Source: Escherichia coli | GTDB lineage: Bacteria; Pseudomonadota; Gammaproteobacteria; Enterobacterales; Enterobacteriaceae | NCBI RefSeq assembly: GCF_003334405.1 | Contig: NZ_QOWM01000007.1 | Reading direction: 5' to 3' (one strand) | DNA: 64,000 bases | Part shown: positions 2,161 to 19,503 of the stretch, piece after piece | Layout of the letters: each line of letters opens with the position of its first letter | How positions within the stretch are numbered: position 1 is the first letter of the stretch | Notes under the pieces: generated by a model | Told to the model about the DNA's origin: nothing | Database searches by the model: none | Seen by the model: the letters and a program-made list of their open reading frames with translations, nothing else | Position numbers and translations under genes: made by a program

Positions 2161-2886
2161 ATGGACAGTCTCAATCTTAATAAACATATTTCCGGCCAGT
2201 TCAACGCCGAACTGGAAAGTATCCGCACGCAGGTGATGACCATGGGCGGCATGGTGGAGCAGCAGCTTTCTGATGCAATCACCGCGATGCATAACCAGGA
2301 CAGCGATCTGGCGAAGCGCGTCATCGAAGGCGACAAGAACGTCAACATGATGGAAGTGGCGATCGATGAAGCCTGCGTGCGCATTATCGCCAAACGTCAG
2401 CCGACGGCGAGCGACCTGCGACTGGTTATGGTGATCAGTAAAACCATTGCCGAGCTGGAGCGTATTGGCGACGTGGCGGACAAAATCTGCCGTACTGCGC
2501 TGGAGAAATTCTCCCAGCAGCATCAGCCGTTGCTGGTAAGTCTGGAGTCGCTGGGCCGTCATACCATCCAGATGCTGCACGACGTGCTGGACGCGTTCGC
2601 GCGGATGGACATTGACGAAGCGGTACGTATTTATCGTGAAGATAAAAAAGTCGATCAGGAATACGAAGGTATTGTTCGTCAACTGATGACCTACATGATG
2701 GAAGATTCGCGTACCATTCCGAGCGTACTTACTGCGCTGTTCTGCGCGCGTTCTATCGAACGTATTGGCGACCGCTGCCAGAATATTTGTGAGTTTATCT
2801 TCTACTACGTGAAGGGGCAGGATTTCCGTCACGTCGGTGGCGATGAGCTGGATAAACTGCTGGCGGGGAAAGATAGCGACAAATAA
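2161..2886 (+). CDS. phoU: Phosphate signalling negative regulator PhoU
   Basis: ATG at 2161 ([13 protein letters not shown]...) gives 241 aa; track ORF from 2143 is an in-frame upstream extension overlapping the pstB stop. Confidence 0.95.
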
Positions 2887-2896
2887 TTCACCAGAC

Positions 2897-2930
2897 AAAT
2901 CCCAATAACTTAATTATTGGGATTTGTTAT
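2897..2930 (+). terminator. Rho-independent terminator after phoU
   Basis: Perfect 12-bp stem aaatcccaataa / ttattgggattt, 4-nt loop, then T-rich tract. Confidence 0.7.
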
Positions 2931-2972
2931 ATATAACTTTATAAATTCCTAAAATTACACAAAGTTAATAAC

Positions 2973-2988
2973 TGCGAGCATGGTCATA
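2973..2988. promoter_or_regulatory. CRP-like site in AT-rich bgl promoter region
   Basis: tgcgagcatggtcata approximates TGTGA-N6-TCACA; lies in AT-rich 2887..3080 segment upstream of bglG. Confidence 0.4.
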
Positions 2989-3081
2989 TTTTTATCAATA
3001 GCGCATTGCTATTTTCTCTGCACGCAATTAAATTAATTTCCGAACCTGGATGTTCGTTATAAAAACCATTAATAAATGACT

Positions 3082-3106
3082 GGATTGTTACTGCATTCGC
3101 AGGCAA

Positions 3107-3110
<4 letters not shown>
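3082..3110 (+). promoter_or_regulatory. RAT antiterminator RNA target 1 (bglG leader)
   Basis: ggattgttactgcattcgcaggcaaaacc; near-identical copy at 4028..4057; each overlaps a terminator. Confidence 0.8.
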
Positions 3111-11765
<8,655 letters not shown>

Positions 11766-15108: not shown

Positions 15109-15858
15109 TCAATTTGGCGAAAAAGCCTTCACGGTAGAGAGTTGGGCAAAACGCATCATCCGGCTGGTAGGATTGTTGGCGCGGCTGTGAATATCCGGCA
15201 GGCTTTTCCAGCCGTGTTTGCCATCTAACTCCCAGACACTGAGCTTTTCAATCGTGGGCGTGACCGCCACGGACCACACCAGCACGTCTTCCGCGTCGCA
15301 TAACGCTTCTACATGATTTACATGAGCACATTTCAGGCGTCCGGCAATGGGCAGCAGCTGCAGATCGCGCGGATCGTCATTCAAAACATCACCGGTTAGT
15401 TTTAGCACGCTTCGGCGCAGCGTGATGAGCTGCGCCCGCGCTTCGTTAGGATCGTTTTGTTTACTGATCCATAGCGATTCATTGCTGGAAAAGGTGTGGT
15501 TATCGGGCGCGTGTGGGCTATGAAACCCGCGCGTCGCACGCTGTAGTTCCATATCGAGGCCACATTCACCTTCGGTTGTTAACGCCACGCCAACCATATT
15601 CCCGGCATAGGAAATGGAAAACGAAGGCAAATTTTTATCACTGAAAACCGGTTTACCTTTCGGCAGGGTGACGATTTCCGGCAATTCGCCAATGCCATAC
15701 AGCATGAACATCAGTTCTGCGAGTAAACCTCTGGACGCCAGAAAACGGCTTTGACGATGAGGGGGAATGTTTCGGGCTTCTTGATGACACTGGGAGGGGA
15801 GACGAACAGAAATCAGATGTCCTTCCGTTAAAATCCCTCGGGCAAAGTGAGTCGCCAT
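15109..15858 (-). CDS. yieE: 4'-phosphopantetheinyl transferase-like protein YieE
   Basis: ATG at 15858 (MATHFARG...) has GGAG 6 nt upstream; alternative ATG at 15870; 21 bp upstream of chrR on same strand. Confidence 0.8.
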   Translation of the reverse strand: MATHFARGILTEGHLISVRLPSQCHQEARNIPPHRQSRFLASRGLLAELMFMLYGIGELPEIVTLPKGKPVFSDKNLPSFSISYAGNMVGVALTTEGECGLDMELQRATRGFHSPHAPDNHTFSSNESLWISKQNDPNEARAQLITLRRSVLKLTGDVLNDDPRDLQLLPIAGRLKCAHVNHVEALCDAEDVLVWSVAVTPTIEKLSVWELDGKHGWKSLPDIHSRANNPTSRMMRFAQLSTVKAFSPN

Positions 15859-16014
15859 TTTTCGCTCCATGCTTAATGGTCCATTATGAATACAAGAGTA
15901 ATCATTTACTGGAATGATGGACAGACTAAAGCGGCTAAAAGTTCGATTCAGACAAGCTTATTACAACTTTTTTACATTTTATTGTGAAATTGGGTCGCGT
16001 TTCATACGATTCGG

Positions 16015-16974
16015 TTATGCCATCGACGCGTAAAGGTTTTTAATGGTTTCCCGTAACCAGACGATCTTCGGATTATGGCTGTTCCGTTTATGCCACAGCA
16101 GGGTAAAAGGAACTTCCAGCTTTTTTTGCTGGCTTTCGTCAAACGGGAGAGGAAGAGCAACCAACGGCAGTTGATGGAGTTGATTGTAGTACTGACAGTA
16201 GCGCGGCGCGGTCGCCAGTAGCAGATTGTCGGGTTGCGCTGCCATAAACAGTGACTGCTCGAATTCCGGCAGGCTCATAGCAATCGTGCGTTCGCGTCCC
16301 AGCTCCTGTAACACATTGTCCAGCGCCCAGGTATCGCTCTGTTCCCAGCAAATGCTGATATGCGGATAACGTAAGAAGGTGTCCAGATTCCACGTTTGAT
16401 GCAGTGCCGGATGATCTTTGCGTAACCAGACGCAGGGCACATCACTAAACAGCACTTCATAATCAATGGCTAACGGTAGCGAGCTTAACAGCTCCCGCGA
16501 GCGAGGATGGCTTTCGCGACCGGAAAAACCGATATCCACTTCACCACGAGTAATGGCATCTAAGGAATCGTAATCCCAGTTACGTAATTTGATGGTCGCC
16601 TGCGGGTAACGTTGGTAGATCTGTTTCGACAGCGCATTAAGCATGATCATCATCAGCGGTGATTCCGCCGCCAGCTCAAACTTCAGGCCGCGCGGTGTCT
16701 GGTGGTGCGGTTTATCCAGCAGCAGGTTGCTCATTTGCATCCACTCCGCCAGATTTTGCTCCATGCTGACCATCAGCGGTGTGGGCGACAGACCCAGCGG
16801 TGAGTTCACAAAGAGCGGGTCGTCAAACCACGCTCTTAACTTTGCCAGCGACTTACTCACCGCCGAAGGTGTCACGTTTATCCGCTTCGCCGCTTTGGTT
16901 ACGCTGCGCTCCTGCATCAGCAGTTGCAGACAAAGCAGCAGATTGAGATCAAGCGTGGTGATGGATTTCTTCAT
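16015..16974 (-). CDS. yidZ: LysR-family transcriptional regulator YidZ
   Basis: ATG at 16974 ([13 protein letters not shown]...) gives 319 aa; N-terminal HTH; overlaps mdtL 3' end by 26 nt. Confidence 0.9.
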
Positions 16975-18124
16975 GAGCGGCAACGGGGCGTCCAGGCGCG
17001 ACGAACATAATCAGCAACAGGCTCACTATGCTACAGGCAATCAGAATCCCGATCAGCATATTCCATGCGCCGATACCAACCACCGCTGCCAGCCAAATCC
17101 ACAGTGACGAACCGCAAACCTGCGCAATACCTAAGGTCGAGCTGGCTACGCCCGCGCGTAATGAAAACGGCCCTAACGCCTGACTCATCGCCACACCAAA
17201 ACCTACCGAGAAACCGGCGCAAATCAGCGTGATACCAAACAGAGAAACCGCATGGGAAGGTGAAACGGCAAGAGTGATCCCCGCCGCCAGGAATAACACC
17301 TGCGAGGTGATCATCAACGTACGTGGCTTAAAAATTCCCAGCGCAAATGGCGTGGAGAATGAAACGGTCATGCTGACGCCAGCGGTCAGCGCCATAATGG
17401 TGGCGTATTCACCGCGCTCAAACCCCATGATTTCCATCAGCAATACCGGTGACGTGTTGACGAAAGTGAGGATCACCGAAACGCTGAGGGTGGTGATAAC
17501 AACACGGCTGAGGAAAAAACGGTTAAGCAGCGACTCGCTATTTTCTCGTGGTTTATCCGAAGCTGCGGGGGCCGCTGGGCGCGTTTCTTTTAAAATAAAC
17601 AAAGACAACATCAGTACCGCGATGCCCATCATTGCCATCGCCCAGAACAGACTCTGCCACGGGAATTTAAGCATAATCAGATGTCCGAGCACTGGCGCTA
17701 ACACCGGAATGATGCAGGTAATACCGTTGAGTAATGACAGCACTTTAGCCCGACGTCGATCATCCAGCGTGTCGCGCAAAATAGCGAACGCCACTACGTA
17801 ACAACAGCCTGCGCCCAACCCCTGTAGAAATCGGCCTGCAAGAAATAACGTGCTGGTTTCAGCCAGTGAACAGAACACCGAGGCAATAATAAATAGCGCC
17901 GCGCCGGGTATGGCGACCGGCTTTCTCCCTGAACGATCGGCCACTTTACCGGCAAATAACATCGCAGCTGCCATCCCCGCCAGATATACGGAGAACGCAA
18001 TATGCAACTGCGCTTCGCTGGCATTGAGATCGGCGGCGATGCGCGGTAAACCAACGAGGTACATATCAATCCCGGCGGGATAAAGTAAAACCAGGGCAAA
18101 ACTACAAATCAAAAAGCGGGACAT
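16949..18124 (-). CDS. mdtL: MFS multidrug efflux transporter MdtL
   Basis: 391 aa, 12-TM MFS pattern. Confidence 0.93.
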
Positions 18125-18220
18125 GGGCTAAAGCGTCCTGATAGTAAGGTGACGCAAAGCATACGTGGTGAAGGAGGATCAGGCGAGTTGCCATTTGGAC
18201 ATAAGTGATTTCCTGAGAGG

Positions 18221-18249
18221 CAAGAAGCCAGCGAATGGCTGGCTTCTTG
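18221..18249 (-). terminator. Hairpin downstream of tnaB
   Basis: Perfect 12-bp stem caagaagccagc / gctggcttcttg, loop gaat; weak U-tract. Confidence 0.5.
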
Positions 18250-18255
18250 AAGGAT

Positions 18256-19503
18256 TTAGCCAAATTTAGGTAACACGTTAAAGACGTTGCCGAACCAGCA
18301 CAAAATCACGGTTATACCAAAGAGAATGACAATCGCCGGAATAAGATTGCCGCCCCAGACCGTGAACATCTGATTGGGAAACTTCTTGCGAGCTTTGATT
18401 GCAAGCACTGCGGGAATAATGACCGCCCAGATGGTGGCGCACAGCCCGGCACCGCCGATCCCGTAAATAAAGCCGTTCGGGAAGATCAGATACAACAACG
18501 CAGGTGGCAGGAAGGTTAACAGCACGGTTTTGAAACGCCCGCCGTGGGAGTTATCAATCTTAAACAGGTCCGCCAGATAATCGAACAACCCCAGCGTGAC
18601 ACCAAAGAACGAACTGGCAACAGCTAAGTTAGAGAACACCAGCAGGCAAAACTCGATAATGCCGTGCTGTTTGGTGCCGAGGAACGATTTCACCAGCGAA
18701 TCAACGTTGCCGCCTGAGGAGATAATCGCCTTAAAGCTTTCTCGCGGAATATTCCCCATGGTGCAATAGAGCCAGAAGAGATAAATCACCAGCGCCAGCA
18801 GCGAACCAAATACCACGCTTTTGATTAACTTATCTTTGCGTTTTCCATAGCAAATAATCAGGCTGGGAATATTGCCGTGGAAACCAAATGACGCCAGACA
18901 CACCGGCAAAGCCATAAAGATATACGGGAAGTAAGACGTTCCCGCAGTGGAGCTGGTGGCGTCGCGCAGAATGGAGTAATCGACCTGGAAGAAAAAAGAA
19001 CCAAACACGATCACAAAGGAGATAATCTTCAGCCCGAGGAACAATGAGGTAATACGACTGGCGGCTAACGAACTTAACCACAATACGCTGGCAACGAAAA
19101 TGGCTGTGCAGATCCCGACAATACGTGGATTAGCGTGATAACCCAAATTCATTGATATCGTTTCACTAATGATCGCACCATTAGCAGAGATATAGGCATA
19201 AGTGAGGATATAGAGAACGAAGGCAACGGTAATACCGCTGATAATGTTCCAGGTGTTACCGATTAAATCTTTGGTGATGGTGTTAAAACTGGAGCCGACG
19301 GGATAATTTAAATTTGCTTCTAATAACAATAACCCGGAATGAAGCATTGAAAACCAGGCAATGATAAGGATAAAGGCACCCCAGAAAAACCAGGCACCGG
19401 CAAGATCAACAGGTAAAGCAAACATACCTCCACCAATTACTGTACCTGCTATAACCATAACACCCCAAAATGCAGAGTGCTTTTTTTCAGCTTGATCAGT
19501 CAT
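18256..19503 (-). CDS. tnaB: Low-affinity tryptophan permease TnaB
   Basis: 415 aa aromatic amino acid permease. Confidence 0.95.
   Translation of the reverse strand: MTDQAEKKHSAFWGVMVIAGTVIGGGMFALPVDLAGAWFFWGAFILIIAWFSMLHSGLLLLEANLNYPVGSSFNTITKDLIGNTWNIISGITVAFVLYILTYAYISANGAIISETISMNLGYHANPRIVGICTAIFVASVLWLSSLAASRITSLFLGLKIISFVIVFGSFFFQVDYSILRDATSSTAGTSYFPYIFMALPVCLASFGFHGNIPSLIICYGKRKDKLIKSVVFGSLLALVIYLFWLYCTMGNIPRESFKAIISSGGNVDSLVKSFLGTKQHGIIEFCLLVFSNLAVASSFFGVTLGLFDYLADLFKIDNSHGGRFKTVLLTFLPPALLYLIFPNGFIYGIGGAGLCATIWAVIIPAVLAIKARKKFPNQMFTVWGGNLIPAIVILFGITVILCWFGNVFNVLPKFG

Follow-up and report, generated by a model that had tools for sequence, protein, structure and literature searches.

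Described relatives of the arrangement discussed here include the short-overlap coupled gene pairs of the termination-reinitiation class (ATGA, TGATG or NTGNNTGA), of which trpE-trpD is an example. In these pairs, as in mdtL-yidZ, the genes are co-directional, the downstream start codon lies inside the upstream gene and no SD is needed. In reporter studies, coupling was most efficient at spacings of -4 to +3 nt, and longer overlaps reduced it more than equivalent gaps did (PMC12548453). Separations of about 20 nt almost abolished reinitiation in E. coli reporters (PMC10666635). The mdtL-yidZ pairs of Morganella and Proteus share a -8 configuration with this class. However, the E. coli pair stands at -26, outside the efficient range of -8 to +3. 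Furthermore, the short-overlap class is enriched for subunits of one complex (PMC10666635), whereas MdtL and YidZ are not such subunits. Long overlaps that couple have been described in phages, where the coat and lysis genes overlap at -38 nt in fr and at -50 nt in MS2 (PMC12548453). Like mdtL-yidZ, these pairs have a long out-of-frame overlap in which the stop of the upstream gene is placed downstream of the start (PMC12548453). However, the lysis start is hidden by RNA structure or relies on termination at the end of coat, whereas yidZ begins in the most open stretch of its mRNA and bears no sign of such dependence.

A different kind of relative is found in ydhB-ydhC and ynfL-ynfM, in which, as in mdtL-yidZ, a LysR-family regulator adjoins an MFS efflux gene. 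Those pairs are divergent, share a regulatory region and, according to ChIP-exo, have the regulator bound between the genes (PMC8464067), whereas yidZ is located downstream of mdtL and co-directional with it.

Anatomy and record of the mdtL-yidZ junction

In the window (the whole stretch of 64,000 nt of E. coli K-12 DNA that was analysed), both genes lie on the minus strand, a point that the first-pass annotation had left unstated. mdtL (16949..18124) encodes an MFS multidrug efflux transporter of 391 aa according to both the ORF list and the RefSeq annotation, and yidZ (16015..16974) encodes a LysR-type regulator of 319 aa, read from the ATG at 16974-16972. The genes overlap out of frame by 26 nt (16949..16974, minus strand). 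This co-directional overlap was the starting claim of the first-pass annotation, and it was confirmed by the ORF list and by RefSeq. On the mdtL side it comprises the last 8 sense codons (H-E-E-I-H-H-H-A, the first only partly) and the stop, and on the yidZ side codons 1-9, with mdtL codon position 2 falling on yidZ codon position 1. The mdtL stop, TGA at 16951-16949 on the minus strand, is made from yidZ codons Leu8/Asp9 (cTT GAt).

MdtL matched the NCBIfam MdtL family NF007782 over its full length (716.1 bits, cutoff 417; residues 1-391 on profile 1-394 of 394), which places it in the MdtL subfamily. YidZ gave a full-length match to the NCBIfam equivalog NF007581 (684.6 bits, cutoff 314; residues 1-318 on profile 1-318 of 319). 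Together with an N-terminal Pfam HTH_1 (PF00126; residues 10-66 on model 1-57 of 60, E = 1.7e-13) and a C-terminal LysR_substrate domain (PF03466; residues 101-313, E = 3.8e-16), that match identifies it as a LysR-type regulator. The HTH_1-coding region of yidZ (PF00126; 16777..16947, minus strand) begins 2 nt past the end of the overlap. In the orthologue junctions, the MdtL tail directly upstream of the overlap was variable at all three codon positions and is therefore weakly constrained. The conserved 'EE' within the tail is the pair of Lys codons of YidZ read in the other frame. Dual coding is limited to the loosely constrained ends of both proteins: the MdtL share of the overlap would be a dispensable cytoplasmic tail past the last transmembrane helix, and the YidZ share would be nine residues, likewise dispensable, ahead of the LysR helix-turn-helix domain.

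The region of 2.4 kb around the junction was 100% identical to that of E. coli K-12 MG1655. It was matched in 5,424 of 5,426 complete E. coli genomes (in 5,422 over at least 80% of the region length), and the junction itself was present at 95% identity or more in 5,423 of the 5,426. RefSeq annotates the identical 26-nt overlap in MG1655 and W3110 (locus L001: mdtL 2677-3852, yidZ 3827-4786), and no difference in coordinates or overlap was found between the pair and the annotated mdtL (b3710) and yidZ (b3711) of K-12. Huber et al. (2023; PMC10666635) also list the spacing, as "-26", in their Supplementary Table S2. The mdtL-yidZ overlap is thus real, conserved and on record in both annotation and catalogue, and is nothing unusual for what is probably a two-gene operon. 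What is added here is the comparative support for the yidZ start, the difference in overlap length among genera and the SD-less, unstructured start.

Several details around the junction were recorded as well. W3110 (L002, NC_007779.1) differs from the window and from MG1655 in that IS5 truncates tnaB upstream of mdtL and IS2 is inserted between yidZ and yieE; its mdtL-yidZ junction is unaltered. In E. coli HCM-22C-2 (NZ_AP038228.1), the junction match ends at query base 122, which corresponds to window position ~16929, 45 nt into yidZ. The record has two matching places, and under the match only mdtL is annotated; yidZ of this strain is probably disrupted by insertion or rearrangement. A plus-strand ORF of 154 aa (16643..17107) runs antisense to the junction and was taken to be a mechanical ORF. 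The substitution behind the TGA stop of Escherichia also made an overlapping TTG, giving TTGA at 16950-16953 on the minus strand, which is the classic -4 configuration. This TTG stands in the third frame, opens an ORF of 11 codons only and is missing from the genera with a 32-nt overlap, and it is almost certainly meaningless.

Fixed yidZ start and moving mdtL stop

The tblastn scan for YidZ loci, with one genome per species, gave 51 loci from other species, and an mdtL homologue was found upstream on the same strand in all of them (51/51). The junction set consisted of 53 loci including two K-12 records, and the 49 with an intact junction represented 47 distinct sequences. In E. coli, yidZ has three in-frame start candidates: TTG 16983, ATG 16974 and ATG 16917 (Met20). 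The second of these (16972..16974, minus strand), followed by a conserved AAG AAA, was invariant in the 47 distinct junctions with a column entropy of 0, and ATG-AAG-AAA was kept in 49/49 intact orthologous junctions. The first-pass annotation had placed the yidZ start inside the last 8 codons of mdtL, and this placement was supported. The upstream in-frame TTG (16981..16983, minus strand) would give an overlap of 35 nt. It was rejected as a start: it is present only in some Escherichia and missing in E. coli E69, in Escherichia sp. E1V33 and in other genera.

While the yidZ start is fixed, the mdtL stop moves, and the overlap measures 8, 26 or 32 nt. Conservation of the overlap had been proposed in the first-pass annotation as a check, and the overlap was indeed conserved across Enterobacterales at these three lengths. 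The 8-nt form (ATGAATAA / ATGCATAA, ATGnnTAA) was seen in Morganella and Proteus, in Proteus by manual reading. The 32-nt form, in which TAA is formed through yidZ Leu10-Asn11 (cTT AAt) and codon 8 is CTC, is that of most Enterobacteriaceae; it accounted for 38 distinct sequences and was found in Salmonella, Citrobacter, Kluyvera, the Klebsiella oxytoca group, Raoultella, Enterobacter and Yokenella. The 26-nt form, with TGA formed through Leu8-Asp9 (cTT GAt), was found in 8 distinct sequences from Escherichia, K. pneumoniae and Vibrio nereis. The Escherichia TGA stop would be the newer one, having arisen from the 32-nt form through a synonymous substitution, CTC to CTT, at yidZ codon 8.

Codon usage at the stops followed the same division. 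In the 32-nt group, yidZ Leu10 was CTT, the codon that makes the working TAA, in 38/38 sequences, while nearby Leu residues were encoded by 3-6 different codons. By comparison, Leu10 was CTC or CTG in 6/8 sequences of the 26-nt group, in which mdtL ends at TGA. Furthermore, in 45/47 loci examined, MdtL would gain 13-77 codons if its working stop were lost. These comparisons suggest that the mdtL stop in use is kept by selection, an argument that is partly circular as the groups were defined by stop position and Escherichia is one clade. The overlap itself is probably a by-product of wherever the mdtL frame happens to have a stop. Within the 32-nt group, yidZ codons 8-10 showed no variation at their wobble positions, CTC at codon 8 among them. 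This goes beyond the needs of the stop codon and could reflect an extra constraint at the nucleotide level.

A few loci departed from the general picture. Vibrio nereis NBRC 15637 (L045), the sole locus outside Enterobacterales returned by the scan, has an mdtL-yidZ pair with a 26-nt TGA overlap like that of Escherichia; the two proteins are 57% and 60% identical to those of E. coli. The pair could have come from horizontal transfer or could reflect convergent placement of the stop. In Citrobacter koseri NCTC10786 (L043) and Kluyvera genomosp. 3 YDC799 (L049), both the mdtL and the yidZ matches were split across frames, and in Proteus hauseri ATCC 700826 (L048) the mdtL match was frame-broken near position 2275. 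These are pseudogenes or sequencing errors.

In Enterobacteriaceae bacterium MGYG-HGUT-00110 (CABIZV010000003.1; L013 937-2532), a 1.45-kb insertion separates mdtL and yidZ. The insertion carries a Stealth-family gene on the opposite strand (L013 1059-2183; Pfam Stealth_CR2, E = 2.5e-43). The junction of ~125 nt is present in two copies with 81% identity and a 9-nt in-frame deletion. In copy one, the intact mdtL ends within a decayed relic of the yidZ 5' end. Copy two stands ahead of the intact yidZ, with ~70 nt of mdtL-derived upstream sequence kept, and contains a relic ORF of 55 codons in the mdtL frame, closed by the customary TAA that lies 32 nt inside yidZ. This locus is a natural resolution of the overlap via duplication of the junction.

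Transcription and initiation of yidZ

The first-pass annotation read the overlap as implying coupled transcription and translation of the two genes. The transcriptional half of this reading is plausible, whereas translational coupling is not implied at a spacing of -26. The overlap leaves no intergenic space between the co-directional genes. A consensus scan, a method which may miss a weak internal promoter, found no promoter-like or terminator-like site at the junction, and its whole-region counts were equal to those of shuffled sequence. Because the genes are co-directional, leave no room for a terminator and have no promoter-like or terminator-like site at their junction, co-transcription is plausible, and on this sequence evidence mdtL-yidZ would most likely form a single bicistronic transcript. 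The strictly conserved adjacency of the two genes also argues for some functional or expression link. The SMRT-Cappable-seq supplements mention neither gene, the term 'mdtL-yidZ' occurred in no paper found, and the literature yielded no direct start-site, transcript or coupling experiment on the pair.

The expected SD region of yidZ (tggacgccccgttgccgc; 16977..16994, minus strand) contains no SD as judged from anti-SD duplex energies. The best duplex was -3.0 kcal/mol in E. coli (GGA 17-19 nt upstream) and the orthologue median was -2.6, compared with -7.2 for tnaB and -6.9 for yieF, both of them neighbouring genes, and a weak -4.0 kcal/mol for mdtL. No SD was found ahead of the yidZ AUG in any orthologue.

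The mRNA around the start was unusually free of structure (16919..16999, minus strand). Averaged over 47 loci, the folding energies of 50-nt windows with their centres 0 to +30 from the ATG ranged from -3.0 to -4.8 kcal/mol, the mean being -11.5 (sd 3.0), and of the 241 windows within +/-600 nt none was as unstructured as the ten centred at -10 to +35. When E. coli was taken by itself, the yidZ start was the least structured of 420 windows across the whole bicistron. The second least-structured cluster there was the mdtL start, which served as an internal positive control. A 140-nt segment at the yidZ start folded worse than 198/200 shuffles (z = +2.05). No conserved RNA structure was detected, the consensus over 13 genera being -2.97 kcal/mol with a positive covariation term, that is, no covariation support, and positions 15800-18400 had no Rfam match at E <= 1. 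A hairpin that masks the yidZ start, as required for coupling by RNA unfolding, was considered and rejected: the segment folds poorly and the start is the least structured place in the mRNA. As it lies in this least-structured part, the yidZ AUG looks able to initiate on its own. However, low structure around an AUG also favours reinitiation and cannot separate fresh initiation from coupling.

Taken as a whole, the locus is probably best explained as a conserved bicistronic pair in which the yidZ start is fixed, the mdtL stop drifts and yidZ translation starts weakly from an AUG that lies open and lacks an SD. One transcript would run from the mdtL promoter. yidZ would be translated from it at a low level, starting at an SD-less AUG that lies in unusually open mRNA and is followed by A-rich Lys codons. 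This AUG would probably be reached mainly by fresh 30S binding, with ribosomes fresh from the mdtL stop, 23 nt downstream, contributing a modest share of initiation at most. What was observed is the anatomy of the junction, its conservation, the missing SD and the low level of structure; the single transcript, the mode of initiation and the low expression are what we infer.

Among the alternatives, tight translational coupling survives best, and we regard it as possible but unlikely. Ribosomes ending at the mdtL stop would slide back ~23 nt and reinitiate at the yidZ AUG, and YidZ would be made only when, and in proportion as, MdtL is made. The lack of an SD at the yidZ AUG in all orthologues is typical of downstream genes that rely on upstream translation, the overlap is conserved and no rival AUG or GUG occurs between the yidZ AUG and the mdtL stop. 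Furthermore, the 8-nt ATGnnTAA of Morganella and Proteus is one of the enriched spacings, and the coat-lysis pairs of fr and MS2 do couple at their much longer overlaps (PMC12548453). However, efficient coupling has been found at spacings of about -8 to +3 nt (PMC12548453; PMC10666635), and mdtL-yidZ is at -26 in E. coli and -32 in most relatives, with -8 only in Morganella and Proteus. Coupling is best at -4 to +3 nt and negative spacing is worse than equal positive spacing (PMC12548453), and a separation of ~20 nt is already almost prohibitive for reinitiation (PMC10666635). The spacing has also varied in evolution among the three lengths, and there is no AUG-masking hairpin for mdtL translation to open. 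The intact yidZ of L013, 1.45 kb away from mdtL, speaks against coupling too, but this is a weak point since a relic ORF in the mdtL frame remains there.

Distinctly less likely is the independent expression of yidZ, mainly from a promoter of its own inside the 3' part of mdtL, which would make the overlap a matter of genome compaction without any expression link. Regulators of the LysR family generally carry promoters of their own, many of them autoregulated, and in L013 yidZ has stayed intact though cut off from mdtL, with ~70 nt of mdtL-derived sequence kept upstream. However, in the consensus scan the part of mdtL near the junction showed no sigma-70-like site on the minus strand. YidZ had no ChIP-exo site at yidZ or mdtL, and hence gave no sign of autoregulation, and the order of upstream mdtL and downstream yidZ was kept in 51/51 loci.

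We would give little credence to a dedicated device for backward reinitiation, in which YidZ would be made by ribosomes that complete MdtL and then move back ~23-29 nt. The idea was drawn from the long -26/-32 overlap in a conserved frame phase, the SD-less AUG in the most open mRNA and the invariant wobble of yidZ codons 8-10. If true, YidZ, a LysR regulator with many targets, would be made at a level linked to how much of the efflux pump is translated, and the arrangement would be a natural chromosomal counterpart of phage coat-lysis.

Interference between the two genes appears more improbable still. Here ribosomes elongating through the last mdtL codons would occlude the yidZ start, and high translation of MdtL would lead to less YidZ. 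With standard footprints, a ribosome at the mdtL stop would cover the mRNA to within ~10 nt of the yidZ AUG, a stretch that the 30S initiation complex needs. However, mdtL is weakly expressed and has a weak SD (-4.0 kcal/mol), and the occupancy of its 3' end is probably low.

Least credible of all is a misannotated start, with yidZ truly beginning at Met20 (16917) and the overlap vanishing. The first-pass annotation had named a downstream start as the finding that would overturn it. Long co-directional overlaps are often start-codon mispredictions, and in many species the tblastn matches set in only at query residue 20-24. However, these match starts were alignment artefacts, as the upstream MKK...LDLNLL is present and conserved in those loci. 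Met20 (16915..16917, minus strand), the sole downstream in-frame ATG/GTG/TTG candidate in E. coli, was rejected as a start on several grounds. It is replaced by Thr, Ala or Leu in 17/49 orthologues, including Klebsiella, Raoultella, Pseudocitrobacter, Vibrio and Morganella. A start there would lose the first 10 positions of HTH_1, and with them the first helix of the DNA-binding domain, given that HTH_1 runs from residue 10. The NCBIfam YidZ equivalog aligns from residue 1. The region before Met20 also has no SD (+1.5 kcal/mol) and is more structured than that around 16974. The comparative sequence data effectively refute the downstream start. The TRAINSPOTTER N-terminomics and INRI-seq supplements, in which start-site data were sought, mention neither yidZ nor mdtL.

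YidZ as a regulator and the meaning of the overlap

The first-pass annotation also called YidZ the likely regulator of mdtL, and this claim did not stand against the published data. In ChIP-exo experiments on uncharacterised regulators, YidZ had 118 sites, 77% of them inside genes (PMC8464067). None was assigned to mdtL (b3710) or yidZ (b3711) under the one condition used, glucose M9 without inducer (PMC8464067). In RNA-seq under the same single condition, mdtL was not among the genes changed on yidZ deletion (PMC8464067). A local regulator binds the promoter of its neighbour and alters the expression of that neighbour, and in these one-condition data YidZ did neither for mdtL (PMC8464067). 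Regulation of mdtL by YidZ is thus not supported under the single condition tested.

A ChIP-exo peak labelled mdtL does occur in the same study, with identical coordinates for YfeC and at least one other candidate regulator and a signal/noise of 65-102 (PMC8464067). It lies at NC_000913.2 3889534-3889558, or about 17909-17933 of the window, roughly nt 192-216 of mdtL, and is not in the YidZ list. In the ChIP-exo supplement, b3710 occurs three times (PMC8464067). The identical peak coordinates across factors suggest a hot spot or an artefact within mdtL.

The adjacency of mdtL and yidZ gives no ground for calling YidZ a regulator of mdtL, because neither ChIP-exo nor RNA-seq shows it. Beyond annotation quality, the overlap matters little. 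If the genes were coupled at -26 nt, the disputed backward-scanning model could usefully be tested on this chromosomal pair, but nothing here indicates such coupling. What the comparison does establish is that this overlap, which ranks among the longer co-directional ones of E. coli K-12, is genuine and does not stem from a wrongly called start codon. The pair is also a small, clean example of how an overlap originates and changes, with the start fixed, the upstream stop drifting and the overlap lying within unconstrained protein tails.
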